From Candidatus Kaiserbacteria bacterium (GTDB lineage: Bacteria; Patescibacteriota; Minisyncoccia; Phycocordibacterales; UBA2100), in NCBI GenBank assembly GCA_028286585.1, contig JAQBRI010000009.1:28010-92009 (forward strand): a stretch of DNA of 64,000 nucleotides. Reading direction: 5' to 3'. Below, piece by piece: positions 24,968 to 63,076 of this stretch. Numbering within the stretch: the stretch's first letter is position 1; every line of letters starts with the position of its first letter. The notes under the pieces are model-generated. The model was not told the DNA's origin. It searched no databases and saw nothing but the letters and a program-made list of their open reading frames with translations. The position numbers and the translations under genes were made by a program.

Positions 24968-26035
24968 TTAATGATTGCTAATGCTTTGTGTCAGCTGATA
25001 AATGGGAGTAATTATCGAAAGTGCAATAAACTCGACAATACTTCCCATCACAAGCATGAGGAGCGGCTCGATAAGCGTAGTAAGATTTTTGGTCATCTCT
25101 TTTACTTCTTGTTCATAATTTTCTGATATGTAACCAAAACTTTCTTGGAGTCGCCCTGTCATTTCACCAGAATGGATAATATGTACAAACATTGATGGGA
25201 ACAACCGAGGATGATGCGAAAGAGCATCTGCAACAGTGCTGCCCTCTTCTACACCAACTGCGATGAATGAAATAACATGCCTATACTGTGCAGATCCTGT
25301 CGTCGTACTAATAAGTTTTAAAACAGCTGCAGCTTGTATGCCGCTTAATAATAATGCACTGCCAGTGCGCGCAATTAGAGATAATTCGTAGCTTTGTAAT
25401 AGACCACCAATTATTGGTACGCGAAAAAGTATCCGTTCAAACAAATGTCTAAAAAATGGGACTCTTATGCACATTCCAAATACAACTAAACAGACAACTG
25501 CACCAAAAATTGCAATGTACCAATCGTGGATCAAAAAATCTGATACTCCTATTAAAATGCGGGTGGAAAGCGGCAATACGGTGTGAACACTTTTAAATAT
25601 CGGTGTAAGTTTTGGGAAAAGATAGACTGCCAAAAATAGGGATATGCACATCGTTGCGAGAATAATGATGATTGGATAGATAAGTGCGGCAATTACAGTA
25701 TTACGTAATTCTGCACGTTTTTTAAGCTCATCGGACACATATATAAGCGACTGATGCAGCGAACCTGACTCCTCTCCTATCTTCACCAGATTGATCGTCA
25801 GTGGAATAAATACTTTTGGAAACTTTTGCAAAGCCTGGGAAAATCGTATGCCATGCTGCACTTCGTGGAGGAGTGTTGTAATAATATATTTTGTATTTTT
25901 TGAGCTCTCCGAAAAACCTATCATCTTTAAAACTTCTCCTAATGGAATTCCAGCACGTAACATCATTGCAATACGTTTAAAAAGTACAACTTGCTGCTTG
26001 TTAGACAAACGCAGCATGTATGGCTTATCATTCAT
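24968..26035 (-). CDS. pilC: Type IV pilus assembly platform protein PilC / GspF family
   Basis: 355 aa, three TM segments with two cytoplasmic GspF-type domains (LLxxGxPLxEAL-like: LRAGIPLGEVLK; SGIQAAAVLK). Confidence 0.8.
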   Translation of the reverse strand: MNDKPYMLRLSNKQQVVLFKRIAMMLRAGIPLGEVLKMIGFSESSKNTKYIITTLLHEVQHGIRFSQALQKFPKVFIPLTINLVKIGEESGSLHQSLIYVSDELKKRAELRNTVIAALIYPIIIILATMCISLFLAVYLFPKLTPIFKSVHTVLPLSTRILIGVSDFLIHDWYIAIFGAVVCLVVFGMCIRVPFFRHLFERILFRVPIIGGLLQSYELSLIARTGSALLLSGIQAAAVLKLISTTTGSAQYRHVISFIAVGVEEGSTVADALSHHPRLFPSMFVHIIHSGEMTGRLQESFGYISENYEQEVKEMTKNLTTLIEPLLMLVMGSIVEFIALSIITPIYQLTQSISNH

Positions 26036-27359
26036 GCGTAAGTCGAAGCGTTTCTTCGAGCGTGGTAATTCCCTGTCGTGCTTTGAGGAGTGCGTCAGTA
26101 ATCATAATTTCCATTCCTTGCTTACATGCTTGGATACGTATTTCATCAGCGCTCGCGCGCATAACAATGCGCTCCCGAATTACTTCATCGATCTGCAATA
26201 ATTCATATACGCCAATGCGCCCTCTGTATCCAGTTCCAATACATTCTCCACAGCCACGTCCCCGATAAAACTGGGGATTGGTGTGCAATAACGAAAGTGG
26301 AGTAAGTTTTGAGACTTGTAATAATTCTGAATCCGTCAATGCTATTTTTTCACGGCAACCAATACAAATTTTTCGTACCAGTCGCTGTCCTATGACGAGG
26401 GTAACTGTAGACGCAATCAAATATGGCTCTACGTCCATATCAAGAAGACGCACGATGGTTGCCGCCGCATCGTTCGTATGAATACTCGACAAGACAAGGT
26501 GCCCAGTGAGCGCAGTATTTACAGCAAGCCGTGCGGTCTCTGTATCACGCACTTCTCCAACCATTACAATATCCGGATCTTGCCGCACGACTGCACGGAG
26601 TCCAGTTCCAAAAGTGAAGCCAATGGCGGGATTTACTTGGATTTGCCGAACTCCATGTATTGAATATTCTATCGGATCTTCAAGTGTAATAATTGATACA
26701 TCAGGCGTATTCAGTTGTGAAATCAAGGTGTACAACGTTGTCGTTTTGCCCGAACCTGTAGGACCTGTCGCAAGTATCATGCCATGTGTACGAGCGAGTG
26801 CGCGCTGTATTATTTGCTGCTGCAGATTACTAAAACCCAATTCGGGAAGACCATTAGCATTATTCATATTAGTGAGTAATCGCAATACAGCATTTTCGCC
26901 ACAATAGGTGGGTGTAATCGATACTCGCACGTCTACAATTATCGGTAGGGTTGTAGATTGTTTTATGTGAATAATTTCAGAGCGAAATCGCCCATCATGC
27001 GGCATGTAATGCTCATCGATGCGCAAACCTGCCATAACCTTTATGCGCGATATCACTTCGGAGTGTAATCCGATTGGTATGGTGTAGACATCTTGCAGTA
27101 TTCCATCGATACGCATGCGCACCATGACTATTCCATCACGCGGATCAATATGTACGTCGGACACCTTTGCAAAATATCCGTGAGATATCAATGCATCAAT
27201 AATTTTGATTGCTGAATTACCTATAATTTTTGTTATGTCCACGGGTCCGCTCTCTCGCGTAGGAATTTGCGTCGTATCAAAACAAAAAACACCCTCGGTA
27301 GGTGTTTCAGACGTGCTTTTTGCACGCGTAACAAACGCATGGAGACCCCGAATATCCAT
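26028..27359 (-). CDS. pilB: Type IV pilus assembly ATPase PilB / GspE family
   Basis: Walker A GPTGSGKTT, Asp box, His box, and tetracysteine motif CIGCRE...CGECIGTGYRGR characteristic of GspE/PilB; overlaps pilC by 8 bp. Confidence 0.9.
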   Translation of the reverse strand: MDIRGLHAFVTRAKSTSETPTEGVFCFDTTQIPTRESGPVDITKIIGNSAIKIIDALISHGYFAKVSDVHIDPRDGIVMVRMRIDGILQDVYTIPIGLHSEVISRIKVMAGLRIDEHYMPHDGRFRSEIIHIKQSTTLPIIVDVRVSITPTYCGENAVLRLLTNMNNANGLPELGFSNLQQQIIQRALARTHGMILATGPTGSGKTTTLYTLISQLNTPDVSIITLEDPIEYSIHGVRQIQVNPAIGFTFGTGLRAVVRQDPDIVMVGEVRDTETARLAVNTALTGHLVLSSIHTNDAAATIVRLLDMDVEPYLIASTVTLVIGQRLVRKICIGCREKIALTDSELLQVSKLTPLSLLHTNPQFYRGRGCGECIGTGYRGRIGVYELLQIDEVIRERIVMRASADEIRIQACKQGMEIMITDALLKARQGITTLEETLRLTHE

Positions 27360-27441
27360 GGGTTAATTTTAGCTCACACTGACGACCCGTAAAGTTTTTC
27401 AAGTGGATAACTATTGATAACTATTACTAGATATTCAATCC

Positions 27442-27541
27442 GTACCTAACCTTCGCGGTCGCGAAGGTTAGGTACATAGCATACACATTCACGATTGTGA
27501 ATGTGTATCGAATGAATTTATTAATCAACTATATTGATTAA
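27442..27541. promoter_or_regulatory. Divergent control region with three inverted repeats (34-bp perfect palindrome, 12-bp-arm palindrome, 8-bp-arm AT-rich palindrome)
   Basis: GTACCTAACCTTCGCG-gt-CGCGAAGGTTAGGTAC (27442-27475); ATACACATTCAC-gatt-GTGAATGTGTAT (27481-27508); TTAATCAA-ctata-TTGATTAA (27521-27541). Located between pilB (minus) and the FAD-oxidase gene (plus). Confidence 0.6.
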
Positions 27542-29224
27542 TTGATTTGCGTTAATTATTGTTATACTTGGAGTATGTTATTGAAAGAAGCTTTGCAAAA
27601 AATAATTCAGGGAGATGTTGTTGATGATCAAGAGTCAATAAAAAAGTACAGTCGTGACACCAGTATCTTCGAGAGAAGTCCAAAAGTTGTCGTGTTTCCA
27701 AAAAAAGCTGCTGATGTTCAGGCAGTTGTTGCGTATGTGCACGAAGCAAAACAGCGTGGAGAAGATATTTCTCTTGCCGGAAGGTCCGCTGGCACCGACA
27801 TGACAGGAGGCCCGCTCACAAAAGATATTGCACTGGTCTTTACAAAATACATGAATACTATTGGTACGATCGGGCTAAATACTGCAACAGCAGAGCCTGG
27901 TGTGTATTATCGCGATTACGAAAAGGCTACGCTTGCGGCAACAGGAATGATTACACCTTCTTACCCTGCCTCGCGCGAACTCTGTGCTATTGGTGGAATG
28001 GTTTCGAACAACTCAGGAGGTGAACTTACACTCAAATATGGCAAAACCAACAAATACGTTCGCTCATTAAATGTAGTACTTTCCGACGGAAGCAAAACTA
28101 CCATCAAGCCCCTCAGTCGCGTTGAGCTGTCCCAGCGGAAAGCACGGCAAGATCTGGAAGGTTCTATATATAGAGAGATCTCGGACCTATTGGATGCAAA
28201 CCGAACAGAAATTGAAGCGGCACGTCCTACAGTGAGCAAAAACTCTGCCGGGTACGCGTTGTGGAATGTTATAGACTCACAAAACGAAACGTTTGACCTC
28301 ACACAGCTTGTTGTAGGTTCACAAGGCACGCTCGCAATGGTAACCGAGGCAACACTTGGTCTTGTTAAAACAGCTGATCATCGGGCAATGTTGATTGTAT
28401 TTTTGTCAGACATTGCACTTTTGCCAGAAATCGTTGGGCGCGTTCTTAAGTACAATCCAGAATCATTTGAGTCCTATGACGACCAAACATTCAAACTTGC
28501 CGTGCGGTTTATTCCACAAATCGTTGGGCATTTTGGCTTACTACAAATGATTAAACTTGGATTCGCATTTATTCCCGAGGCCTGGATGGCGCTTACAGGA
28601 GGAGTGCCCAAGCTCGTTTTGATGGCAGAATTTGCAGAAAGCACTGCAGCGGAAGCTCTTGCAAAAGCAGTTGCTGCTCGCGCTGCACTCCACAACCTAT
28701 CTCTTAAAACCAAGATCGCACGATCGGAAACTGAAACCGCAAAGTATTGGACCATCCGACGAGAAAGCTTTGCACTTTTGCGAAAGAATTTGCACGGACT
28801 GTACGCGGCACCGTTTATTGACGATATTGTGGTACATCCTGCCGACTACCCTACTTTTTTGCCCGAACTTAATCTTATACTCGATCAACATAAACTTCTT
28901 TATACAATTGCGGGGCATATTGGAGATGGAAACTTTCATATCATTCCGCTTATGGATTTATCAAAAGAATCTCAGCGAAATGAAATAATCGAACTGCAGC
29001 CAAAGGTGTACGAACTTGTTGCCAAATACAAAGGCTCTACAACGGGCGAACATAATGACGGTATTATTCGGACTCCTTACCTTAAGTATATGTTTACACC
29101 AGCGATGCTCGATTTGTTTACACAAGTAAAAAAGATATTTGATCCACTTAATATATTTAATCCTGGGAAAAAAGTGGGCGGGACCATCGAGGACATTAAG
29201 TCGTCGATGATAACTCATACATAG
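27542..29224 (+). CDS. FAD-linked oxidase (GlcD/D-lactate dehydrogenase-like FAD-binding PCMH-type oxidoreductase)
   Basis: N-terminal FAD_binding_4-like region (GRSAGTDMTGG), C-terminal FAD-oxidase_C region (GHIGDGNFH, GEHNDG). True start possibly at Met 27575. Confidence 0.7.
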   Translation: MICVNYCYTWSMLLKEALQKIIQGDVVDDQESIKKYSRDTSIFERSPKVVVFPKKAADVQAVVAYVHEAKQRGEDISLAGRSAGTDMTGGPLTKDIALVFTKYMNTIGTIGLNTATAEPGVYYRDYEKATLAATGMITPSYPASRELCAIGGMVSNNSGGELTLKYGKTNKYVRSLNVVLSDGSKTTIKPLSRVELSQRKARQDLEGSIYREISDLLDANRTEIEAARPTVSKNSAGYALWNVIDSQNETFDLTQLVVGSQGTLAMVTEATLGLVKTADHRAMLIVFLSDIALLPEIVGRVLKYNPESFESYDDQTFKLAVRFIPQIVGHFGLLQMIKLGFAFIPEAWMALTGGVPKLVLMAEFAESTAAEALAKAVAARAALHNLSLKTKIARSETETAKYWTIRRESFALLRKNLHGLYAAPFIDDIVVHPADYPTFLPELNLILDQHKLLYTIAGHIGDGNFHIIPLMDLSKESQRNEIIELQPKVYELVAKYKGSTTGEHNDGIIRTPYLKYMFTPAMLDLFTQVKKIFDPLNIFNPGKKVGGTIEDIKSSMITHT

Positions 29225-33692: not shown

Positions 33693-33809
33693 ACGATCAA
33701 TAGATAATTAATAAGTCTGTATAGTGTAGCACAAAGGCACCGAGGTTTTCAATGCAAAACAAGTCTCCATATTCGGAGACTTGTTTTGCAACCCACTATT
33801 ATCCAACAA

Positions 33810-34454
33810 TTATTGTGTTTTGAAGGATGTTGGCCATGTCACTTGGACATTGCCGTTTGCGTCTCTTGTGTAGATCACATAATAGTATGTGGTATTTGAG
33901 GCCAAGTTCGAAATGGTAACGTCTTGTACGTTTTTGAGTGATGTGTCGGTGCTTGCTGCGCTGCCGTTGACGGTAACATCATTTGAGTTCTCGGTCATAA
34001 CGAGAGGTGAAGTACTGTAATAAACGGTTCCCTGCGCTGGCTTGTTGGTCTGCCAATGAATAATCGCATATCCCTGTCCTGTAGTGCTTACAGTAGCATT
34101 AGAGATAATAGGAGCACTTGTGATATTGGTAGTGCCTCCCATCTGCGTGTTAATTAGGCCGAGGGTAAGCGGGCCAACCCGACCTACTGCAGGAAGTCCA
34201 TTTCGCGTTTGAAAACGAGAAACTGCCGAAGCCGTTAAAGATCCAAAATAACCGGTAACCAACCCTTGTGGGTAAAGTGACGAATCTGCTGCGAGAAATG
34301 TCTGGAGTGAAGAAACATCACTACCACTCATTCCAACATCCAGCTGGCGAGTGAGCGTATCAGCATATGCATACGACGATAGAGCAACTATCATTGCTAC
34401 TCCGAACAAGGTCGAGAGTATTGTGGTTCGTTGAGAAATACTGTTTGTTTTCAT
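33810..34454 (-). CDS. Secreted protein with peptidoglycan-binding domain and C-terminal FN3-like beta domain
   Basis: Signal peptide, LVTGYFGSLTASAVSRFQTRNGLPAVG (PG_binding_1-like), C-terminal region with FN3-like strand pattern (TVYYSTS...NTTYYYVIYTRD). Confidence 0.5.
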   Translation of the reverse strand: MKTNSISQRTTILSTLFGVAMIVALSSYAYADTLTRQLDVGMSGSDVSSLQTFLAADSSLYPQGLVTGYFGSLTASAVSRFQTRNGLPAVGRVGPLTLGLINTQMGGTTNITSAPIISNATVSTTGQGYAIIHWQTNKPAQGTVYYSTSPLVMTENSNDVTVNGSAASTDTSLKNVQDVTISNLASNTTYYYVIYTRDANGNVQVTWPTSFKTQ

Positions 34455-38992: not shown

Positions 38993-41900
38993 TTATTTCT
39001 TCCAATGATACAGCAATATTGAGAAGTCGACTGAATCTACCTTTCCGTCGTGATTGAGGTCGACTTTATTATTTTTAAAAGGTGGCTTCGTCTTCCAATA
39101 TGCGAGAAGTATTGAGAAATCGATTCCATTCACTTTTCCATCTCCGTTGATATCGCCAATCACTTCAGTTGTAGCTGCTGGGGTAGCCACAGGTGGAGAA
39201 TTATCTCCTCCGCCTCCCCCACCTCCTCCACCTCCGCCACCGCCACCTCCATTACCTGGGTTTTGTACGGGAGCAGCAATTGCAGTAAATGACTGACTTG
39301 CACTTGATGATGCTGATCCATATTGTACTGCTACATGGAACCAATACGTTCCAATAACGGGAACAGTTGAAGAAAGTGTTGTATCAAAGTTCGCACCAGG
39401 CTGAATCAGTTTTGCTGCAGTTGAACTAAAAATATCATCACCACCTCCACAAGAATTGGTTGCAGAGTCGGTAACACACCACGTGTATTGATATTCGTAT
39501 GCTATAGAACCTTCGTTTGTTATACGCACTGCTGTGGCAATGCTTGGTACCGTCAATCCACTAAAACTCTGGATCAGAACTTGTGCTGGCGCTCCCGGTG
39601 TTGCACTCACAGGAATTGTTGTCGTGCCTCGTCCAACAAGATTTTTTGCTGATATACGGAAATCATATGAATTATTGTTGGATAGACTAGTTACCATGGT
39701 TGTTGGTGTCGTACTAATACCGTCAGAAAATATAGACCATGTTCCGCCCGAAGAAAGTTTGTATTCAACTACGTAATCAGTCACAGGTGAACCACCGTTT
39801 GATATTGGCGCCGACCATGAAAGGTTGATACTGCTGTCTTGTACAATTGCGGCGAGGTTTATTGGGGCACCGGGCACACTTGCTGGCGTCGCAGCATTAC
39901 TTGTACCGGAGCTGGTACTCGTGCCAACTGCGTTTGTTGCAGTGACAGTAAATGTGTATGTTGTTCCGTTTGTGAGGCCTTGTATAGTAGCTGAAGTTCC
40001 ATTTGTTGTAGTACTAAATACTCCACCATTTGAAGTGACGGTATAGCTTGTTATAGGAGATCCTCCATTAAAACCGGGCGCAGACCACGTAAGATTTACA
40101 CTACTGTCTGCAATTGCTGCAGCAAGATTTGTTGGCGCGTCAGGAACTGTAGCTGGGGTGACCGAATTCGTTGCGGCTGATGAAATACTTGTTCCAATTG
40201 CGTTGGTTGCCGTCACTGTAAACGTGTAGGCTGTTCCGTTTGTTAAACCAGTTACCGTTATTGGTGAACTTCCGCCAGTTGCGGTGAAGTTGCCGATATT
40301 TGAAGTAACGGTATAAGACGTAATTGCAGAGCCACCGGTAAATGATGGTGGGCTAAATGTAATAGTCGCAGTACCGTCACCGCCAACTGCCGCTACGCTC
40401 GTTGGTGCACTTGGCCCACCTGCAGGTACAACCGAATTACTTGTTCCAGAACTAGTACTTGTTCCAACATTGTTTGTTGCAGTTACTGTAAAGGTGTACG
40501 TTGTTCCATTCACGAGTCCAGTAATAGTGATCGGTGAACTTCCACCTGTTGCAGTAAATCCTCCTGTATTTGATGACACGGTGTAGTTAGTTATTGCAGC
40601 ACCGCCGTTACTAACGGGCGGTGTAAAGGAAACAGTTGCTTGGCCGTTTCCAGCAACTGCAGAAATCGAAGTGGGTGCATCAGGTACTGTGGCAGGAGTA
40701 ACGGAGTTACTTGTACCCGATGAAGTACTCGTTCCAATACTATTTGTTGCAGTGACAGTAAATGTGTATGTCGTGCCATTTGTGAGACCAGTAATTGTAA
40801 TTGGTGAAGAGCCACCTGTTGCCGTAAATCCTCCTGTATTTGATGACACGGTATAGTTTGTTATTGCAGCGCCGCCGTTACTTACAGGCGGAGTAAATGT
40901 AATTGTTGCTTGGCCGTTACCACCAACGGCAGAAATACCAGTCGGAGAATTAGGAACAGTTCCTGGTATTACTGAATTACTTGCGGATGATGCGGTACTT
41001 GTTCCTGCAGCATTCGTAGCAGTGACTGTAAATGTGTACGTAGTTCCGTTGGTAAGACCGGTCACAGTGATCGGAGAAGAACCACCTGTTGCGGTAAGGC
41101 CGCCACTACTTGATGTGACAGTGTAACTCGTAACGGCAGCTCCTCCATTATTTACTGGTGGAGTAAATGTAATTGTTGCCTGACCATTACCGCTAACTGC
41201 GGTCACGCTTGTCGGCGCGTTTGGCGTCGTCGCGGGAACAACGGTGTTACTTGTGCCCGATGGCGTACTGGTTCCAACTGCATTTGTGGCAGTCACAGTA
41301 AATGTGTAGGTTGTTCCATTTGTAAGACCGGTAATTGTAATTGGTGAAGATCCGCCGCTCGCGGTGAAGCCGCCGGTGTTTGATGACACGGTGTAGTTAG
41401 TTATTGCAGAACCGTTGTTACTTCCCGGTGTAAAGGAAACCGTAGCTTGACCATTACCGCTTACTGCCGTGACAGCAGTAGGTGCATTAGGAACAGTAAC
41501 AGGAGTAACTGAGTTACTTGCGGACGACGCAGTACTGGTTCCAACATTGTTTGATGCTGTTACGGTAAATGTGTAGGTTGTACCGTTAGTAAGGCCAGTA
41601 ATTGTAATTGGGGAGCCGCCGCCTGTTGCAGTAAAGCCGCCGGTGTTTGATGACACGGTGTAGTTAGTTATTGCAGATCCCCCGTTACTGACTGGCGGAG
41701 TAAATGTGATTGTTGCTTGGCCGTTTCCAGCAACTGCAGAAACGCTTGTTGGGGCACCCGGTGCAGTCGCAGGTGTCACAGAATTGCTTAGTGTCGAGGA
41801 GGTACTTGTGCCAACGCCATTAGTTGCAGTAACGGTAAATGTGTATGCGGTGCCATTGGTAAGACCGGTCACAGTGATTGGTGAGCCACTTCCGCTTGCT

Positions 41901-44900
41901 GTAAACCCGCCTGAGTTTGATGTCACCGTGTACGTTGTGATTGCAGCACCACCGTTACTAACAGGCGGAGTAAATGTAATTGTTGCTTGGCCGTTACCTG
42001 CTGTAGCGACTGCTCCCGTAGGTGCATTTGGAACAGTTGCTGGTGTCACAGAATTGCTTAGTGTCGAGGAGGTACTTGTGCCAACGCCATTAGTTGCAGT
42101 AACGGTAAATGTGTATGCGGTGCCATTGGTAAGACCGGTCACAGTAAGTGGAGAACTGATACCAGTGACATTAAAGCCGCCAATGTTTGATGTGACCGTG
42201 TAGTTTGTAATCGCAGAACCGTTGTTACTTCCTGGTGTAAAGGTAATTGTTGCCTGACCATTTCCACCAACTGCAGTAACGCTTGTTGGAGCACTCGGGA
42301 CACCTGCCGGCGTGATTGAATTGCTTATTCCCGAAGATGTACTTGTTCCTGCAGAATTATTTGCAGTTACAGTAAACGCATAGACTACTCCGTTTGAGAG
42401 ACCGGTCACTGTGATTGGTGAAGAACCACCTGTTGCAGTAAAGCCTCCAACATTTGAAGTAACAGTGTACGTTGTGATTGCAGCACCGCCATTACTTACG
42501 GGTGGAGTAAACGAAATTGTTGCCTGCGTATCCCCTCGCACTGCTGTCACACTTGTCGGAGCATCTGGAATTGTTGCTGGAGTGACCGATGCGCTCGCAC
42601 TCGAACTAGCACTCGTTCCAACTGAGTTAGTAGCAGTTACTGTAAATGTATATGCCGTTCCGTTTGTTAAACCAGTTACCGTGATTGGTGAAGATCCGCC
42701 GGTTGCAGTAAAGCCACCTGTGTTTGAAGACACTGTATATGTTGTGATTGCAGCGCCACCGTTACTTACAGGCGGAGTAAAGGTTACGGTCACTTCTCCA
42801 TTGCCTCTCGTGACGGTTCCTATTGTCGGCGCGTTCGGAGTAGTAGCAGGAACAACCGTGTTACTCGTTGCCGATGCGGTACTTGTTCCTGCTGAGTTAG
42901 TTCCCGTTACGGTAAAGGTGTACGTTGTTCCATTTGTGAGACCAGTAATTGTAATTGGCGAAGATCCGCCGGTTGCAGTAAAGCCACCTGTGTTTGATGA
43001 GACCGTGTACGTTGTGATTGCAGATCCCCCATTACTTACAGGTGGTGTAAAGGAAACAGTTGCTTGACCATTTCCAGCGACTGCAGAAACGCTAGTTGGG
43101 GCACCCGGTGCAGTCGCCGGAGTTATTGTATTACTGGTGCCAGAATTTGTACTCGTACCGATTGCGTTTGTTTCGGTGACAGTAAATGTGTATGCCGTTC
43201 CGTTTGTTAAACCTGTTACAGTTATTGGTGAAGAGCCACCAGTTGCAGTGAAGCCGCCGGTGTTTGATGAGACTGTATAGATCGAAATACTTGAACCATT
43301 GTTATTGCCAGGTGTAAACGAAATTGTTGCTTGGCCATTTCCGGCAACTGCGGTTACGCTTGTTGGAGCACTCGGGACTCCCGCAGGTGTGATAGCATTA
43401 CTCGTACCAGAGGCGGTACTTGTTCCCGCCGAGTTAGTAGCAGTTACTGTAAAAGTATAAATCGTACCGTTGGTAAGACCGGTTATTGTAATCGGTGAAG
43501 ATCCACCAGTTGCTGTGAGGCCTCCCACATTTGATGAGACTGTGTATGTTGTTACAGCAGAGCCGCCGTTATTCACTGGCGGAGTAAACGATATGGTAGC
43601 CTGCGTGTCGCCGCGAACTGCGCTAACACTTGTCGGCGCGTCCGGTACTGTAGCTGGTGTCACCGAACTACTAGCACTCGAACTTGCGCTCGTTCCAACC
43701 GCATTTGTTGCGGTTACTGTAAACGTGTACGCTGTGCCATTCGTTAGACCTATTAGTGTTATTGGTGAAGAGCCGCCAGATGTTGTAAAGCCGCCTGTGT
43801 TTGATGAGACGGTGTAAAGAGTAATTGGTGAACCGCCTGTATTTCCTGGTGTAAAAGAAATGGTTACCTGCCCATTACCCGCCGTCCCTATTACACTAGT
43901 AGGTGCATCAGGAATTGTCGCCGGTGTCGCAGAATTTGTTGCGTTCGAGGCCGTACTCGTACCAACTGAGTTAGTAGCAGTTACTGTAAATGTGTATGCC
44001 GTTCCGTTTGTTAAACCTGTTACAGTTATTGGTGAACTACCACCTGTTGCAGTGAATCCTCCTGTGTTTGATGTAACGGTGTAGCCAGTTATTGCAGAAC
44101 CTCCGTTACTTACGGGTGGTGTAAATGTAATTGTTGCCTGAGTGTTACCACGTGTCGCGGTTCCTATAGTTGGTGCGTCTGGCACAGTTGCAGGAACCAC
44201 ACTATTACTTGTACTTGATGGAGTACTCGTTCCCAACGCACTACTTGCCGTCACTGTAAACGTGTACGTTGTTCCGTTCACAAGTCCAGTTATTGTAATT
44301 GGTGAAGAGCCACCTGTTGCAGTGAATCCCCCAGTGTTTGATGAGACCGTGTACGTTGTGATTGCAGATCCCCCATTACTTACTGGTGGTGTAAACGTAA
44401 TTGTTGCTTGGCCATTACCGCCGGTTGCAGTGACACTAGTTGGGGCACCCGGTGCAGTCGCCGGTATCACACTGTTACTAGCAATTGACGCAGTGCTTGT
44501 ACCAACGGCGTTCGTTGCCGTAACTGTAAACGAATAGGAAATTCCATTGGTAAGGCCGGTCACAACAATTGGTGAGCCACTTCCCGTTCCAGTAAAGCCG
44601 CCAACGTTTGAAGTAACCGTGTACGTTGTGATAGCAGAGCCGCCGTTATTCACTGGCGGAGTAAACGATACAGTAGCTTGAGTATCACCGCGAACTGCAC
44701 TCACGCCGGTTGGCGCACCTGGCACTGTTGCAGGAACAACACTATTACTCGTTCCCGAAGGAGAGCTTGTACCAGCGGAATTAGTAGCAGTTACCGTGAA
44801 TGTGTACGTTGTGCCATTAACAAGTCCGGTAATCGTAATCGGAGAACTTCCGCCGGTTGCGGTAAAACCGCCGGTGTTTGAAGACACTGTATATGTTGTG

Positions 44901-47900
44901 ATTGCAGTGCCACCATTACTGACTGGAGGAGTAAATGTGATTGTTGCTTGGCCGTTACCACGTGTTGCCGTTCCTATAGTTGGTGCACCAGGCGCTGTAG
45001 CTGGTGTTACTGCATTACTAGTACCCGAAGAAATACTGGTACCTGACGCGTTCGTTGCCGTTACTGTAAATGTGTACGTTGTTCCATTTGTGAGACCAGT
45101 AATTGTGATTGGTGAGCTGCCGCCGGTTGCGGTAAAACCGCCGGTGTTTGATGAGACAGTATAATTTGTAATTGGTGAGCCTCCCGAATTTACTGGAGGT
45201 GCAAAAGTAATAGTTGCTTGTCCATTTCCGGGAACTGCCGTAACACTCGTCGGCGCATTTGGTACCGTTTGATAATTTAAATATGCATAAGTAGTTCCCG
45301 GCGTAATCGCCCAAACTGGCGAAACAAAATCCCAGTTTGTATATGTCGCCTGGGTCTTCAATGCAGTAGTAGTTGTACCTGTCATTCCTGCCGGATCGGC
45401 ACCATTACCAACACCATTACTTTTGCCAGATGTAACGTTGTCCCAATAATCAGATACGTAAGATCCACCGATTGGATTTCCAACAATGCCTCCCACATAT
45501 TGAAGTGCCGCAGCACCAGTTGCTCCTGAGGCGCCCGCGGCGCCTCCTGTTCCTCCTGTTCCTGCAGCGCCTCCTGTTCCACCTGTTGCACCACTCGTTT
45601 TGGTGCCTGTCGGCACACCTGTTGCGTATGTATTTGTAATCACCGCATTATTACTTCCAAACAATCCTCCAGCATACGCGTTTCCGCCAGCACCTCCGGC
45701 GCCGCCTGTTGCACCCGTACCATTTACACCAGCCACTCCGCCTCCTGCTGCTCCGGCGTTTCCGCCAGCACCTCCTATCGCACCGGTTCCCGGAGTTCCG
45801 GCCGTAATAGTGACGTTTCCACGTGCGTAAGTATTTGTTATAACTCCCGTGTTCTGACCAACAAGTCCTCCGCCTGTCACATCACCTCCAACACCTCCTG
45901 TGCCGCCAGTTCCTCCAGTGGCTCCTGCACCACCGTTTCCAGATCCACCCGATCCACCAACGCCTCCGTTTCCGCCCTTTCCGCCGACCGCACCATTGCC
46001 TCCGTTGCCTCCTGTTATGCTTACGTTTCCGGATGAATAACTCGTATTAAAAGTTCCGGTCGCAAGATCTGCTCCCATAAGCCCGCCCGCAAATGATGCG
46101 CCGCCGGCACCACCATTTCCTCCTGCTACAGAAGCACCACCTGCGCCACCGGCAAGTGTTCCGCCTGCGCCACCTGTACTAACGGTACCCGAGAGTCCTG
46201 CGGAGGCACCAGCGCCACCAACAAGTGAGACATTTCCTGATGACCACGAAGAGAGCACAGTACTTCCCGAAGCGTTTTGTCCGACAAGTCCGCCAGCATA
46301 TGCTGCGCCTCCGGCGCCTCCCGCCGCAGTTGCACCCATTGCTCCGCCTATACCACCTGCGCCGGTTGGACCACCCGCGCCGCCGTTTCCTCCGACACCA
46401 CCTGCACCACCTACGCCGCCAGCAGAGCCGTTTACGTTCACGGCTCCAGTTCCATATGAAGTAGAAATCGTTCCGCCATTATTTTGTCCAACAAAACCAC
46501 CGCCATACGCGATACCTCCAACACCTCCTGCAGTACGTGCGCCAGCAATGCCGCCAGTTCCGCCAGTTCCCGCAACAATTCCTGCGCCGCCCGCCGCACC
46601 ATTTCCTCCCAATCCGCCAACGCCTCCTGCGCCGCCGGTTACCGTAACAGAACTGTTTGCATATGAATCTTTAATCGTTCGCCCAGTATTGTTATATCCA
46701 TTAAATCCACCCGCGTATGCAATACCTCCAACACCAGCCGCGCCCGCTGAACCGCCCGCGCCGCCTGTCGCACCATTTGCAGCCGTTGCGATTCCGCCGG
46801 CAACTCCAGCGCCGCCAGTTCCTCCAACACCTCCTGCACCAGCCGAACCCAAAACTGTTGTTGACGCGTAGGACCCCGAAAGCACGGTTCCATCATTAAA
46901 GCCAATGAGTCCGCCCGTATAAAGAACTCCTCCAGAAACTGCTGCGCCGCCTGCACCACCTGCACCACCAACTCCGGCTGCTCCAGGTAATCCTCCTATG
47001 CCTCCTGTACCACCGGACCCGCCGACTCCACTCGTGCCAGTAACAGATGCGCCAATTGCATAACTTGTTGCAATAGTATTAAGCGCATTCACGTTGTTAC
47101 CAATGAGTCCGCCCGAGTAGGACGCGCCACCAATTCCTCCAGCACCTCCTGTTCCGCCAGTGCCTCCAACATGTGCACTTGTTCCGAGACTTCCATCGCC
47201 GCCCGCGCCGCCTGTCGCACCAGTTGCACCGTTTTTAGCAATCGAAACAACACTACCTAATGCAAACGAATTTAAAACAACTCCGATTGCGGTATTGTGT
47301 GCAATGAGTCCTCCAACATATGCTGCACCTCCTGCTCCTCCTGCTCCTCCTGCTCCACCCGAGGCGGCAGTACTACCCGATACACTTCCAGAAGCACCTC
47401 CCGCAGCTCCCGCTCCCGGTGTTCCTGCAGTGCCACTCGTTGAAGTAGCATTTCCTGTCGCGTATGAATTTCCTTGAATCGTACCAAAGTTAAAAGCGAC
47501 AAGTCCGCCGGCATATGCTGCACCGCCCACGCCGGTAGCGCCACCCAAGCCGCCGGTTCCTCCGATTGATCCAGATCCACCGGCGCCACCAATCACTCCC
47601 GCCGCGCCATTACCGCTGGTGCCGCCATTTGCAATAACATTGTCAGTTGAATAACTTGAAGTAATGATGAGGTTGTTACTCGCGGTAGCACTGGTGCGCC
47701 CTACCAACCCACCGGCATATGCAGCACCGCCAGCTCCCGACGTACCTCCACCGCCCGTTGCAGCACCAACTGCCGCGGATCCGCTGGTGCCAGAGGCTCC
47801 TGCGCTTCCTCCATTTCCTCCTGTGCCACTTGTCGAGGTTACAATATTGCCTGTTGCATATGAAGTAAGAACGTTATTGGCCCCGGTTGTCGCACCAGTA

Positions 47901-50900
47901 AATCCAGCTAATCCTCCTGCGTTACCGTCGCCTCCTGCTCCGCCAATTCCGCCGGCACCTCCCGCGCCGCCAACAGAACTTGCTGCACCATTTGCACCAA
48001 CTCCTCCTGTGTTTCCAGTGCTTCCAATACCACCCGTTGCGGAAACTGCTCCCGTTGCATAACTATTCACTATATCGCTTTGTCCCCCTGTTGTAACAAA
48101 ATTCAATCCAATCAAGCCGCCGGCAAAACCCGAACCGCCGGCTGCAGCAAGCACAGCGCCACCGCCAGCACCTCCTGCAACTGTTGTTCTAGATGCGCCA
48201 CCATTTCCGGACGTTCCTGCTGTTCCCGCATTTCCGCCGGTTGAAGAAGCATTCCCAGTAGCATAATCAAAACTATAATTTACGATTCCAGAAGTAACAT
48301 TAGTGTACCCAACCAAACCACCTGCGTTACCATCGCCTCCGATACCTGCCGAACCGCCAAGTGCTCCTGCCGAACCTGCATGAGTTACGGTTCCGGTTGA
48401 ACCATCACCTCCCACACCACCTGCTCCACCAGTGCCTCCAGTTCCGCCGGTGACCGTAGCATTTCCCGTTGCATATGAATTAAGTATTTGTAATGTTTGT
48501 GTAGTTGCATTTATACGTCCAACGAGTCCTCCGCCATACGTCACACCACCTGCACCACCGGCACCTCCTGCACCACCTGCAGCTGCAATACCACTTGCAA
48601 TTGTGCTACCACTCGTGCCTCCTGCTCCTCCCACTCCTCCCGTTCCTCCAGTACCTCCCGTGACTGAAAAAGAAATCGAGGAGTACGAATTATTCTGAAT
48701 TGTTCCAAGGTTATCACCAACAAGTCCACCATAACTACGAGCGCTTCCGGCGCCTCCTGCACCTCCTGCAGTTCCTGTACCTCCGGCAAAGGCGCCTACT
48801 CCAGTTCCGCCCGCACCGCCAATTCCGCCGGTTCCTGCCGTTTGCTCAGTTCCCGAAATCGCGATCGTATCAGAATACGATGTTGTAATAATTCCGGCAG
48901 CACTATTAAATCCCGCAAGACCTCCAACAAATGTACCGCCGCCCGCGCCTCCTACGCCTCCAACTCCGCCGGCACCTCCTGCACTTCCAGCTGCAAGTCC
49001 CGAGCCTCCAGCACCGCCATTTGCACCATTTCCCATTGCACCGCCCGCGACACTAATATTTCCTTTTCCAGATCCGGCATCAACACTTGCATACGACGCA
49101 ATAATTTCGGATGCGTTATTTCCTACAAGTCCACCGACATGAATCAAACTGGACGCGCCACCGGCTCCGCCTGCTGATCCCGCTGCACCACCACCCGCCG
49201 CTCCGCTTCTTCCAGCGGTTCCGTTTTGTCCTGCACCCCCAGTCACATTGAGTGCAGTCTTTGAATACGAAGTCTGAATAACTCCGATCGAATATCCCAC
49301 AAGACCACCGACATATACGCCGCCGCCAGCACCTCCTGCACCACCTGCGCCTGCAATACCATAAAGCGCTGTTCCTGTTCCAACTCCGCCCGCGCCGCCC
49401 TGCGCGCTTGCTCCGCCGGCACTCCCTGTCACGGTAACGGTTCCCGTTTGTGAGTATGAATTAGTAATTGTTCCAACAAAGTTTTGTCCAACGAGTCCGC
49501 CGGCCTGCAGTGCACCAGCAACGAGTCCGCCGCCAGCACCTCCGGCACCGCCCACTCCGCCAGTACCACCTAAGTGGTTGGTCGCGAGTGTTCCATCGCC
49601 GCCCGCACCACCGACACCTCCTGCACCACCTGACCCACCAGTTGCATTCACATCGGATGTTGCATATGAATTATTTATAATTCCAGCAACGGTATTGTTT
49701 CTTCCTACCAAACCGCCTACGTTAACTGCTCCGGCCACACCGCCAGAAGCACCTGCGCCGCCCGCTGCTGCTGTGCCAGCTGAAATATTTCCCGAAGCTC
49801 CTGCAGTACCTCCAGCGCCCGCGGCACCACCGGCACCAGAAAAAGCACTTACTGCTCCTGTTGTATGAAAACTGCTTTGAATTGTGGTTGGACTGTCTCC
49901 CACCAAACCTCCCGTATAGTTAACTCCTCCACCTCCACCGACTGCTCCATTACCACCAGCACCCCCAAGAGACGCGGACCCTCCTGCACCACCGGCACCA
50001 CCAGAGCCCGATGCTCCACCTGCTCCCGATGTTCCTCGGATAATTCCTGTTGAACTTGATGTCGCAATATTTCCTCCAGAAGCTGCTGCTGCTGCGACAA
50101 GGCCACCTGCGTAGGATGCGCCGCCCAATCCAGCAGCTCCACCAGTTGCACCCGCTCCTCCCGCCGAGGCTGTACCGCCAGCACCTCCGGCGCCGCCATT
50201 TCCTGCAGCACCGCCCACTCCGGCAAGGACAGTCACGTTACCTGATGTAAATGAATTTCCAATAAAAACGTTTGTGTTTGTAAATCCAAGGAGTCCACCT
50301 CCGTTTGCAAATCCTCCTGCGCCTCCAATTCCTCCTACTGCTCCCGCGCCGCCCGTTATAGAATTTGTTACCCCGCTTCCGCCCGCGCCACCTACTGCAC
50401 CTGCACCGCCCGCTCCGCCCGTTACTGTTATGTTTCCTGAAGCGCGAGAATTATTTATCGACTGTCCAGTTCCCGAGTTAAATCCTTCGAGTCCGCCTGC
50501 GTATGCACCAAAGTTAAGTGCTCCGCCGCCTCCGCCCGCGCCACCAGTTCCACCGACTGCTCCATTTGTACCGGCAACTGCCGCACCGCCCGCACCACCG
50601 CTGCCTTCTGTAATAGTGACATCGTCGGATGATGACAATGATTCAATAATCACATCTGCAAGCGAATTGAGTCCGATAGCTCCGCCACTATAGATTGGTC
50701 CGGCAACACCACCCGCGCCTCCGGTTCCACCAGTTCCATTTCTTCCACTTCCCGATCCGCCCGCGCCGCCAGTTCCGCCAGTTCCCCCAACACCACCCGA
50801 ACCGCCAAGAGTTACAGTAATTGTTCCTCCACTACTTGAAGAGGAGGCAATATTTCCATTACCTTGTCCTGCGAGACCGCCAATATATACCACGCCACCT

Positions 50901-53900
50901 CCGCCGCCGGTACCTCCAGTTCCTGCTACTCCGCCTGCATGCCCTCCTGTTCCCAATGTTCCGTCTCCGCCATTTCCACCTGCGCCTCCCGTTCCGCCAC
51001 TTCTTCCGCTTGCGGTAAGACTACCAATAACGATGTCATTAATAAGGACTCCTGAGTTATCGCCAACAAGTCCACCGATGTATTCGGCACCGCCAACTCC
51101 ACCGATACCTCCGGTCCCTCCCGTTGCACCGGTGCCTCCGGCAATATTTCCCGAAGCACCAGCGGCACCTCCCGCTCCCGCGCCACCCGCGGCTCCTCCC
51201 ACAACACTAATAGAAGTAATTGTGTATGTTACGTCTCGAATGATTCCAGTATTGAAACCCATGATGCCTCCGCCCGCAGCAAGTCCGCCGGTACCACCGG
51301 CACCTCCTGCGCCGCCCGCTCCACCAATTGCTCCGGCTGTACTGCCGCCGGCACCACCCACTCCACCTGTGACGCCAGTACCTCCGGCACCTCCCGTTGA
51401 AGAAATAGTTCCAGTAGTATTTGGAAGACTGATTGTTGTTCCTAGGACACTATCGTTACCAATCACTCCTCCTGCGTATGACGCACCACCGACTCCTCCT
51501 GCACCTGATGTAATTCCCGCAGCTCCTGCAACACCAGCGCCCGATGTTCCAGGAGTTCCGGCAAGTCCACCATTTCCCGCAGCTCCGCCAAGAGCAACAG
51601 CATTGCCCGCAGCATATGAATCAGGACTTACGACCGCTGCATTAAATCCAACAAGGCCGCCCGCAGCGGCAAGTCCTCCGGCTTCGCCACTCAATCCGGC
51701 GACACCTCCCGTTGTACCAGCCGATCCGCCGGCAAACGCACCCGAAGAATTTCCTCCGTTTCCGGTTGTCGCTCCCGCCGCTCCTACTCCACCGGTTGCA
51801 AGTGCGTTACCTGATGCGTGCGAACCATTTTGAATTATTCCGTTTGTCGTATTAAAACCGACGAGTCCGCCCGCGTACGCAAGACCTGCGGCGTTTGATG
51901 CTGCAGCACTAGCCGAAGTATTTCCTCCAGCGCCGCCTGTTGTACCAGCTCCACCATTTCCTCCGCTGCCGCCGGCACCTCCCGCCCCGCCCGTCGCTGA
52001 GGCATTGCCTGTTGCGTACGAACCATTAATTACTCCACTACTATTTCCCGCGAGTCCTCCTGCGTACGCTGCCTTACCCAAAGCAACAGCAGCGCCTGCG
52101 CCGCCCGCAGCACCAGTGCCTCCGACACCTCCGTTACCACCGCTTCCAGTTACACCCGCGGTTGAAGTTGCGTTAATAGTCGCGTGTGATCCCAAAATGA
52201 CACCGCTTGTTGAATTGTTTGCGACGAGTCCGCCGGCGTATGCAAACCCGCCAAGCGAAACACTTGTTCCGCCAACTCCACCAACTCCGCCCAAAGCACC
52301 ACTTCCACCTGTGCCCCCTGCTCCACCATTTGCGCCTATTCCACTTGCTCCACCTTGTGAGATTACAGAACCGGATTCTATATATGCATTTATTATTGTC
52401 GAAGTATTCAAGCCGACGAGACCACCAGCAAACGAGTCCCCACCCGCGCCAGCAGTTCCCCCTGTTGCACCCACCGCACCAACATGTGATGACCCTCCTG
52501 CTGATCCGTTTCCAGCAACACCCGCTGCTCCACCATTTTTTCCAGTTGATCCGGTTGCAACAATACTTCCGGACGCGTATGAATTTATTATTTCGTTTAA
52601 GTTGTTACCCACGAGTCCGCCCGCGTATGCAATAGCACCAGCGCCACCGTTTCCGCCAAGTCCACCTGCTGCTGCAGTACCCGAGTTAAACGTTGCAGTT
52701 GTAGCGCCTCCCGCACCACCTGCACCAGCATTTCCTGGCGTGCCTCCTACAGATGTGACATTGCCCGTTGAGTATGAAGTGGTTCGAATGATACCGCCGT
52801 TTTGTCCGACAAGACCTCCAGCCGTACTGATACCACCCGCGCCACCGTTGCCTCCGGTCGCTCCAACTCCACCAATCGCATTTGTTCCGCCGGTGCCTCC
52901 TGCACCACCCACTCCGCCAATGCCACCAGTTCCTCCGGTTACTGTCGTGCTACCGACCGCATAACTTGTAGTGACTGTTCCCAATGAAATGATACCAACG
53001 AGTCCTCCACCAAATGCGGCACCTCCTGCACCTCCCGTTCCACCCAATGCTCCAGCTCCACCTGTTGTACTTGCTGCTCCAGTTCCACCGGCACCTCCTG
53101 CACCTCCAATTCCGCCCGTGCCTCCAAGAGAATTAACGGTGCCCGTTGCGTAGGAAGTTAAAATTTCTCCAGTCGTCAAAAATCCAACCAAGCCTCCAAC
53201 ATACGCAATACCTCCGACAGCTCCTGTTCCTCCGGTAATGCCGGCCAAACTTGTACCACCCGCGCCACCTGCTGCTGCAGCACCGCCCGCGCCTGCTGTG
53301 CCGCTCACGTTCCCTGTTGAAAAATCATTGGTCAATGTTGATCCAGTGTTGTTTCCTACAAATCCGCCCGCATACACAATACCCCCCGCTGTTGCGGTAC
53401 CCGCAGCTCCGGCAAGTGCACCGGTGCCGCCCGCACCCCCTGCTCCTGCTGCACCTCCTGCGCCCGCAACACCTGTAACTGATCCAATAGTGTAATTACT
53501 ATCAGTAATTGTGAGTGCATTATTTCCAGCAAGTCCTCCAACATACAGAATTGCACCTGCTCCTCCAATACCACCCGCAAGACCGGCGAGTCCGGTGAGT
53601 CCTGTAACTCCGTTTGCTCCGGCACCTCCTGCGCCGCCGGTTCCATTTACAATATTTTGTGCACTCGATGTTTGAATGATTCCTGTATTACTTCCCACGA
53701 GTCCGCCGGCATATGTTGAAAGCACGTTTGCAGATCCGCCGGTGCCCGATGCACCGCCCGCACCTGACGTTCCACTTGAACCTTTGGTACCGCCCGCGCC
53801 TCCCGTGCCGCCAACTCCACCCGTGCCGCCAACAACAGTCACTAATCCAGTATTTGAAAAAGATGAAATAATTATTCCCGAGTTAAGACCAACAAGTCCT

Positions 53901-56953: not shown

Positions 56954-57439
56954 TCAATCAACCTCCTCATTGTCGAGCGACAAATCTTTGCTGTTTTCAG
57001 AAATTTGAGCCGATGTTCGTAGGTACCCGATAAGGTCTCGAGTCGCTACATTTGCGATTAGCGGCTTCATTGCGAGCTTCATTAACTTTTCGATTCTAAA
57101 GATGCCATCTTCTCCTTTTTCGGTAAGAGCAAGTACCCGCTCACGCCGGTCTTCACCCTGAGAAACTTTTATCCATTTGTTTTTCTCCATCGAAATAATC
57201 GCTCTACTTACTAGTGATGGCTGTACTCCAAGCGCTGCTGCAACTTCGCTCGCGCGCATACTTGTGTGTGAGTGCGAAAGAATACCAAGGATGGCCCATT
57301 CCAAATTCGTAAGACCTTGCGGCTTGAGGACCTCGGCACTCACCTGCTTGAACACTCGATACCCTTTCGCCTGGATAAGACCAATGTCGTACGTTGTGTG
57401 ATCTTTAAACAAAAGTGCGATATCAGAAAATATACCCAT
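56954..57439 (-). CDS. MarR-family transcriptional regulator
   Basis: Winged-HTH region LTNLEWAILGILSH...MRASEVAAALGVQPSLVSRAIISMEKNKWI typical of MarR; immediately upstream of the giant gene, same strand. Confidence 0.75.
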   Translation of the reverse strand: MGIFSDIALLFKDHTTYDIGLIQAKGYRVFKQVSAEVLKPQGLTNLEWAILGILSHSHTSMRASEVAAALGVQPSLVSRAIISMEKNKWIKVSQGEDRRERVLALTEKGEDGIFRIEKLMKLAMKPLIANVATRDLIGYLRTSAQISENSKDLSLDNEEVD

Positions 57440-62635: not shown

Positions 62636-62637
62636 AT

Positions 62638-63003
62638 CTACAACTGTGTATACTTTGTGTGCCGCCCTTTGGCCTTTGCTACCGGGTATTTCTCACCATT
62701 TTTCTTCATCTTTTTTTCAAGTGCATCAGAAATATCAATTTTAAGATCATTACACATTAGCAGTACCCAATAGAATACATCGGCTAACTCTTCGGCAACA
62801 TCTTCTTTATTTGTCTTTATGTGTGCCTCCATTTCTTCTTTATTTTTCCATTGAAAATGTTCCATGACTTCGGCAGCCTCTAAAACCAAGGAAATGGCTG
62901 TGTCTTTTGGGTTATGAAATTGTTTCCAATCACGAGCGTCACGAAATGAGACCACGAGCTTTTTGAGCTCCGCAAGGCTCTTTTGGGTCTTTTTTGTCGT
63001 CAT
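62638..63003 (-). CDS. MazG-like nucleoside triphosphate pyrophosphohydrolase
   Basis: LEAAEVMEHFQW and EELADVFYWVLLMCNDLKIDISDALEKKMKKNGEKYP are the EExxE...ExxD all-alpha NTP-PPase (MazG) motifs; 121 aa. Confidence 0.7.
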   Translation of the reverse strand: MTTKKTQKSLAELKKLVVSFRDARDWKQFHNPKDTAISLVLEAAEVMEHFQWKNKEEMEAHIKTNKEDVAEELADVFYWVLLMCNDLKIDISDALEKKMKKNGEKYPVAKAKGRHTKYTQL

Positions 63004-63076
63004 AGATAGTCAAATAATACTCTTTTTATGAGATAAAGCTAAAGTGTATTCATAATGATGACTGACCCTATTTCTC

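Follow-up and report, generated by a model that had tools for sequence, protein, structure and literature searches.

Three adjacent palindromes in the divergent pilB–oxidase spacer of a Candidatus Kaiserbacteria genome form a strain-specific block upstream of two putatively leaderless promoters

The spacer between the divergent genes of a PilB-type ATPase and a FAD-linked oxidase in a MAG of Candidatus Kaiserbacteria (CPR/Patescibacteria) carries three palindromes in a row, which we call P1, P2 and P3. They are a real and statistically striking, strain-specific curiosity, and they represent an instance of promoter-region inverted repeats rather than a new kind of system. We tentatively favor the reading that they form an accessory, lineage-specific element at the DNA level, that is, dyads to which proteins could bind and/or DNA prone to form cruciforms, located upstream of two promoters of putatively leaderless genes. 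That they are a functionless relic is nearly as likely. As judged from the orthologous loci, the conserved control elements of the pilB/oxidase pair are two -10 boxes and a TTATNCAC box, all of which lie outside of the palindromes.

The palindromes and their genomic setting

The window, that is, the whole stretch of 64 kb which was analyzed, contains on its minus strand a pilus operon whose first gene encodes a pilB-like T2SSE ATPase (26028–27359, minus strand). The operon further codes for PilC, a 150-aa protein, a LVIVD-repeat protein and pilins. The FAD-linked oxidase of 549 aa is encoded on the plus strand (27575–29224) and is 100% identical to the protein MDB5188197.1, whose gene is on a contig of 94,973 bp; to its right follow a VIT1-family and a NUDIX gene (plus strand), a SET-domain gene (minus strand) and the gene of the histidyl-tRNA synthetase. 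Hence the pilus ATPase gene and the oxidase gene diverge from a common spacer which holds all three palindromes, as the first-pass annotation had described. We assign the oxidase start to ATG 27575 and not to TTG 27542, as the homologs agree in length and in the N-terminus. This start gives a spacer of 215 nt, in which 32 nt separate the end of P3 from the ATG; P3 is therefore not just before the start codon, as had been assumed.

P1 (27442–27475) is a perfect palindrome of the sequence GTACCTAACCTTCGCG-gt-CGCGAAGGTTAGGTAC with a 16+2+16 architecture (arms 27442–27457 and 27460–27475). P2 (27481–27508), also perfect, has the sequence ATACACATTCAC-gatt-GTGAATGTGTAT and is of the 12+4+12 type (arms 27481–27492 and 27497–27508). 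The AT-rich palindrome P3 (27520–27542) reads ATTAATCAA-ctata-TTGATTAAT; it had been described as 8+5+8, and its arms are one base longer on either side of the same loop, that is, 9+5+9 (arms 27520–27528 and 27534–27542). The arms of P1 and P2 are 100% complementary, and over all three palindromes 37 of the 37 pairs are Watson–Crick pairs with no single G-T pair. Such exclusive Watson–Crick pairing fits a constraint on duplex DNA, or a recent origin, rather than a constraint on RNA alone. The sequences of P1, P2 and P3 are mutually unrelated.

The centers of the three palindromes are located at 27458.5, 27494.5 and 27531, and neighboring centers are 36 and 36.5 bp apart. Relative to the oxidase start (27575) the centers of P1, P2 and P3 are at -116.5, -80.5 and -44, and relative to the pilB start (27359) at -99.5, -135.5 and -172, respectively. 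In the oxidase promoter, P3 overlaps the UP/-35 zone; the palindrome has -10-like hexamers on both strands at its center.

To estimate how often palindromes of this kind arise by chance, the 215-nt spacer (27360–27574) was shuffled 5000 times with preservation of the dinucleotides. Arms of at least 16 nt were obtained in 0 of 5000 shuffled spacers and arms of at least 12 nt in 2 of 5000; thus P1 and P2 are clearly non-random and far beyond chance. Block shuffles of the whole window gave arms of 12 nt at most. Arms of at least 9 nt were found in 62 of 5000 shuffled spacers, and a 9-nt arm occurs in about 0.6–1.2% of local shuffles; P3 is only unlikely at the level of about 1% and lies within promoter-upstream DNA of about 80% A+T. 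P1 folds into a stem of 15 bp with a loop of 4 nt, and as a DNA hairpin it has a folding energy of -15.9 kcal/mol (z -8.6); for P1 and P2 together, folded as DNA, the z value is -9.4. Folded as RNA, the spacer reaches z values of -6.7 (plus strand) and -7.8 (minus strand), with very stable predicted hairpins on both strands. The independent Logan assembly of SRR13312974, whose underlying reads are possibly the same as those of the MAG, is base-for-base identical in this region. The palindromes are therefore not the quirk of one assembler.

None of the three palindromes is followed by a T-run, in line with the first-pass annotation, which had considered terminators unlikely for this reason. A terminator scan returned nothing at P1–P3, and both neighboring genes start here while no gene ends, so we rejected P1–P3 as terminators. 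Stable stem–loops of 9–16 bp come close in size to the true terminators of the window; unlike Rho-independent terminators, however, P1–P3 lack the T-run, have AT-rich outer stems and do not follow a gene end. The other intergenic perfect hairpins of the window are all found just 3′ of gene ends, and most of them consist of a GC-rich stem and a subsequent T-run; the relatives possess the same kind of terminator. Further perfect 9-nt hairpins at 2192, 15036 and 16872 are within long ORFs. P1–P3 are the only perfect hairpins of the window between two gene starts. The only other 16-nt perfect palindrome of the window, TGCAAAACAAGTCTCC-atattc-GGAGACTTGTTTTGCA at 33753–33790, is located just downstream of the minus-strand gene at 33810–34454 and thereby in a terminator position.

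The arms of P2 had also been compared, with low certainty, to CRP/FNR-family half-sites. The CRP consensus is TGTGA-N6-TCACA and the FNR consensus TTGAT-N4-ATCAA. No palindrome matches either of them: the TCAC/GTGA and ATCAA/TTGAT words within P2 and P3 are everted and have the wrong spacing, the spacer sequence that comes closest to the CRP consensus deviates from it at 4 of 10 positions, and FNR-like sequences with 8 of 10 matches are found at 27414 and 27542, outside of the palindromes. More generally, none of the palindromes matches the consensus sequences of CRP, FNR, Rex, Fur, LexA or parS. In Rfam no family was found at the gathering score or at E values up to 10.

We then consider the copy number. 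A second copy of any single arm, or of the block as such, is absent from the 64-kb window and 7.3 kb of adjacent contig as well as from the corresponding loci of the relatives, and no other gene of the window has one of the palindromes or a half-site upstream. The P1 core has 0 matches in the JGI metagenomes and in IMG/VR, and the P2 core has no match in IMG/VR. Plasmids and phages gave no significant match to the block. In 185,579 GTDB species genomes (596 Gb) the P1 core was matched only twice, by Thiobacillus-type palindromes of betaproteobacterial MAGs. These MAGs (Hydrogenophilales, Thiobacillaceae) share with P1 the 22-nt core TAACCTTCGCG-nn-CGCGAAGGTTA at L005 2445–2468 and 2661–2684 and at L006 3806–3829. 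The flanks of these palindromes are unrelated to those of P1, and both L005 copies are within a direct duplication of 216 bp; we judge the match to be due to chance, given how many terminators with a palindrome 596 Gb contain. As far as we searched, that is, in the window with the adjacent 7.3 kb, the relatives and the databases, a dispersed REP-like repeat, which the first-pass annotation had named as the alternative to an operator, is not supported. Look-alikes of a P2 12-mer at 39.9–45.1 kb are codons of the coding repeat of a giant gene and not palindromes. This giant ORF (5941 aa, 38993–56818, minus strand) contains a repeat of 270 nt (90 aa) around 39.9–45.1 kb and shows at 45–55 kb a sharp shift in composition, with a G+C content of 0.55–0.58 and a GC skew of about -0.3.

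No regulator gene was found next to the palindromes; a MarR gene at a distance of 30 kb is the nearest one, and the repeats upstream of this gene are unrelated to P1–P3. The MarR-family gene (56954–57439) is located just upstream of the giant ORF. Genes for a transposase, integrase, invertase or recombinase are absent from the 64-kb window. At the right end of the window there is a defense-like cluster (60629–63985, minus strand) with a Schlafen-type helicase fused to an S24 (LexA-like) peptidase domain (668 aa), a MazG-like protein and an AbiEii-like nucleotidyltransferase. As to a signature of foreign DNA, both short-palindrome avoidance and G+C content are unremarkable. The sole candidate for a small ORF in the spacer, a TTG ORF of 33 aa which runs through the hairpins, is taken as spurious.

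The spacer in related genomes and its conserved elements

The closest syntenic relative is represented by three samples (L001–L003). Its oxidase is 87% identical in protein, the flanking genes have about 75% DNA identity, and the arrangement of pilB and the oxidase gene is unchanged. Its spacer, however, has a length of 106 nt as compared to 215 nt here; it aligns to both ends of the window spacer and lacks about 109 nt at about 27426–27538. P1, P2 and most of P3 fall into this lineage-specific block of about 109 bp (27426–27538 in the alignment to the relative). The boundaries of the block are ambiguous, as any position of the gap in 27412–27540 gives equal identity. In more distant relatives P1–P3 are present neither upstream of pilB nor upstream of the oxidase gene; in these relatives the neighbors are different, or pilB and the oxidase gene are separated by two additional genes. 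In L017 (1848–3000), for example, the oxidase gene and the pilus operon are still divergent, with a 60-aa ORF and an inositol monophosphatase gene between them. Therefore the content of the pilB–oxidase spacer is evolutionarily fluid. In the same locus a hairpin without T-run is located directly upstream of the pilB box.

The first-pass annotation had proposed stacked operator sites for dimeric regulators and had named absence from orthologous intergenic regions as an argument against a regulatory role. This absence is what we find in the closest syntenic relative, and because the orthologous spacer lacks them, P1–P3 are not operators conserved for either the oxidase gene or the pilus operon. 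Likewise, the block is not needed for the expression of either gene, since the closest syntenic relative does without it. Of the properties which are generally expected of an operator, dyad symmetry at or near a promoter is present, with P3 centered 44 bp upstream of the oxidase ATG, and conservation in orthologous promoter regions is lacking in L001–L003 and in the remoter relatives.

The block was either gained in the lineage of the window or lost in the sister lineage; both directions are compatible with the alignments, in which the sole relative of the same synteny is about 75% identical in DNA and the remoter relatives have other neighbors. Two features around the block would fit a local rearrangement. 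A perfect tandem duplication of 10 bp, GATAACTATT x2 (27406–27425, plus strand), partly duplicates the conserved box described below; it adjoins this box and the block, and is present as a single copy in the closest relative. The block is further bordered by an imperfect direct repeat with indels, AACTATTGATAA (27409–27420) and AACTATATTGATTAA (27527–27541). We also considered an origin of P1 and P2 in situ. In an alignment with low gap costs the sequence CCGTGGATAACTT-ATACATATT of the relative pairs with the left arms; we rejected this origin, as the similarity is estimated to be at chance level for a comparison of 215 x 106 nt. In a relative with 80% oxidase identity we noticed another perfect palindrome, ATGTGTGACA-n-TGTCACACAT, of the 10+1+10 type (L004 1207–1227 = L015 279–299). 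It is located between a gene for an ECF-type sigma factor and a divergent 152-aa gene, is operator-like and is unrelated to P1–P3.

For pilB we predict a promoter on the minus strand (27366–27393) which consists of TTTACG, 16 nt, TAAAAT and 6 nt up to ATG 27359. The -10 box TAAAAT (27371–27366) ends 6 nt 5′ of the ATG, and a -10 box is found at the matching position in 4 of 5 orthologs (window, L001, L015 and L018). For the oxidase gene we predict an extended -10 element, TGtTATACT (27560–27568, plus strand), 6 nt upstream of ATG 27575. In all 8 distinct close orthologous upstream sequences, L017 among them, a TATAAT-like box precedes the oxidase ATG by 6–7 nt, and this box usually has a TG before it. 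The same geometry is seen at other genes. Across the 51 gene starts of the window TAnnnT occurs 16 times with a peak 6–9 nt 5′ of the start codon (in 15 genes if spacings of 5–9 nt are included), and Shine–Dalgarno-like motifs are rare, at 5 of the 51 starts. Examples of starts with TATAAT-like boxes are 17847, 27575, 29287 and 30842 on the plus strand and 15799, 27359, 30796, 56818 and 57439 on the minus strand. This suggests that leaderless mRNAs are widespread in this Kaiserbacteria genome. Because the conserved -10 boxes are 6 nt upstream of the ATGs, leaderless mRNAs are probable for pilB and the oxidase gene as well; these mRNAs would start at or beside the ATGs, outside of the palindromes. 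The palindromes would therefore probably reside in untranscribed spacer DNA and not in a 5′ leader, which disfavors the structured leader that had been offered as the other option.

A DnaA-box-like sequence is found 43 nt upstream of the pilB ATG. This box, TTATCCAC (= AGTTATCCAC; TT[A/G]TNCAC; 27403–27410, minus strand), is the sole conserved element of the central spacer. In 5 of 5 orthologous loci (window, L001, L015, L017 and L018) the TTATNCAC box is located 43–45 nt upstream of the pilB ATG, and it keeps this distance to pilB whatever gene sits upstream. TT[A/G]TNCAC is absent in a distant pilB (L022), and the TTATCCAC box is not enriched in the window. The TTATNCAC box is probably the actual cis-element that is conserved in the promoter of the pilus operon.

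There is in addition a weak promoter-like site on the minus strand (27528–27555) with TTAACG, 16 nt and TATAGT, matching in 9 of 12 positions, whose -10 element is the P3 loop. Promoter-like sites occur twice in this region, and 1.7 are expected from shuffles. If the site at 27528–27555 were used, P2 and P1 would become part of a pilB leader of about 160 nt.

Possible roles of the block

We suggest, with due reservation, that the block acts at the DNA level in the following way. A single-copy, non-coding block of about 109 bp would be lodged in the untranscribed spacer between back-to-back promoters. If it is active, it would act as double-stranded DNA, because both mRNAs probably start outside of it. 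The block could then offer dyad-symmetric sites to dimeric DNA-binding proteins and/or stretches of cruciform-prone DNA. It would do so at a place where divergent transcription builds up negative supercoiling; according to the twin-domain model negative supercoiling is expected between divergent promoters. Of the three palindromes, only P3 would be in a position to contact RNA polymerase, and P1 and P2 would be at upstream-activator distances from both gene starts. Such a block would be an accessory module and not the conserved control of the pilus operon. Any protein binding or cruciform extrusion would be a prediction of this reading, and so would the lack of transcription across the block.

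In favor of a DNA-level element, the palindromes are real, non-random and seen in a second assembly, have short spacers and exclusively Watson–Crick pairs, and are alone among the perfect hairpins of the window in their position between two gene starts. In their dyad symmetry, in their divergent location and in the position of P3 over the -35/UP zone they resemble the operators of divergent promoters of the TetR/tetO or MarR type. Unlike these operators, they have arms of 12–16 bp, much longer than usual half-sites (the 16-bp arms of P1 are far longer), no regulator gene is adjacent, the orthologous spacer does not conserve them, they do not recur and they match no consensus. The absence in the sister lineage, the lack of recurrence, of an adjacent regulator gene and of a consensus match count against the DNA-level element. 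Further, as the palindromes are mutually unrelated, each of them would require a protein of its own, in a type of genome with few regulators. A strain-specific DNA-binding role is possible.

The alternative of a cruciform finds a parallel in Escherichia coli, where promoter regions are enriched in inverted repeats with arms of at least 8 bp and spacers of at most 8 nt (PMC6060812). P1–P3 are like these cruciform-capable repeats in that they are perfect, have arms of at least 8 bp and spacers of at most 8 nt and are located in a promoter region; unlike them, they come three in a row, which is unusual.

The block might instead be the functionless relic of an indel, that is, left-over or inserted DNA which is tolerated between, and not inside, the core promoters. 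We regard this as possible, if somewhat doubtful. Such a relic could stem from the end of a mobile element that has decayed, from an intervening gene that was lost except for its 3′ region, or from inverted duplications by template switching. A relic would agree with the absence of the block from the closest relative, with its single copy, and with the variation of the spacer content among the relatives (L017). The imperfect direct repeat AACTATTGATAA/AACTATATTGATTAA and the 10-bp tandem duplication would be signs of local slippage or rearrangement, and the perfect arms fit a recent origin. However, three different, adjacent and perfect palindromes are hard to obtain neutrally. The block also lacks terminal inverted repeats and a clean target-site duplication, and the 64 kb contain no gene for a transposase, integrase or invertase. 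No donor sequence turned up in any collection searched, and the hairpins are unlike the terminators of the genome.

Less probable is an action at the RNA level, which we consider unlikely. Here the block would be transcribed, either from the distal pilB promoter centered on P3 or as a small unannotated RNA, and the hairpins of the leader of about 160 nt (two stable stem–loops) or of the small RNA would control stability, processing or read-through. The very stable RNA hairpins predicted for both strands agree with this, as does the sigma-70-like site at 27555–27528 (minus strand), which scores equal to the proximal pilB promoter. Yet promoter-like sites occur at the frequency found in shuffles, and the orthologs keep the geometry of the proximal -10 box and not that of the distal one. 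A small RNA would lack a T-run or any other terminator, and Rfam gave no match even at E values up to 10. Moreover, the stems have neither G-U pairs nor stable tetraloops, and the block has no homologs from which covariation could be read.

A further reading, which we hold to be quite improbable, is that the block is a recently acquired "hairpin cassette". It could then be low-copy insertional DNA of a kind so far unrecognized in CPR, or its palindromes could form cruciforms which absorb supercoils. In the latter case the palindromes, spaced by about 36 bp, would take up negative supercoils and couple or insulate the promoters of the pilus motor and the oxidase.

Very improbable is a dispersed repeat of the genome of the REP/BIME or MITE type. 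An intergenic cluster of palindromes of about 23–34 nt is superficially BIME-like, and the block behaves as an indel. But enterobacterial REP/BIME elements, which likewise form intergenic clusters of short palindromes, are imperfect, belong to families of hundreds of copies and are mostly found after the 3′ ends of genes, whereas here three unrelated perfect palindromes occur in a single copy between gene starts. The many intergenic copies that define REP/BIME elements are not found in the 64-kb window and 7.3 kb of adjacent contig, and there is no second copy in the related loci; the P1 core, with 0 occurrences in the JGI metagenomes and IMG/VR and 2 unrelated ones in 185,579 species genomes, adds to this. 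MITEs and other small non-autonomous insertions are comparable in that the block is non-coding, of about 110 bp, rich in structure and present or absent between relatives; unlike them, it lacks terminal inverted repeats as well as a clean target-site duplication, and neither further copies nor a cognate transposase were found.

Finally, terminators, a replication origin, a dif site or an invertible fimS-like switch of the pilus promoter, taken jointly, are the least credible readings. They could call on the stable hairpins, on the DnaA-box-like TTATCCAC nearby, on a local minimum of the cumulative GC skew at 26–30 kb, and on the fact that pilus operons are classic targets of phase variation. 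Both neighbors, however, start here and T-runs are missing. For an origin, DnaA boxes are not enriched (18 found versus 17 expected window-wide, with only one 8/9 box), the GC skew tracks gene orientation and is negative again after 56 kb, and the block is not conserved, whereas the distance of the TTATCCAC box to pilB is fixed. For a switch, the repeats are of the hairpin type with spacers of 2–5 nt, no long-range inverted repeats flank the promoter, and the window has no recombinase gene.

Significance

Type IV pili are central to the lifestyle of CPR/Patescibacteria, and to our knowledge almost nothing is known about transcription control in these bacteria. In this respect it would be useful to have a genuine regulatory module in front of pilB; P1–P3 are not this conserved module. 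If protein binding or cruciform extrusion proved true, the block would be a compact natural example of a newly acquired promoter-upstream architecture; otherwise it would be a curiosity. More general are two other results of this locus, the predicted leaderless promoter geometry, which is shared by both genes and by many others, and the conserved TTATNCAC box upstream of the pilus operon.
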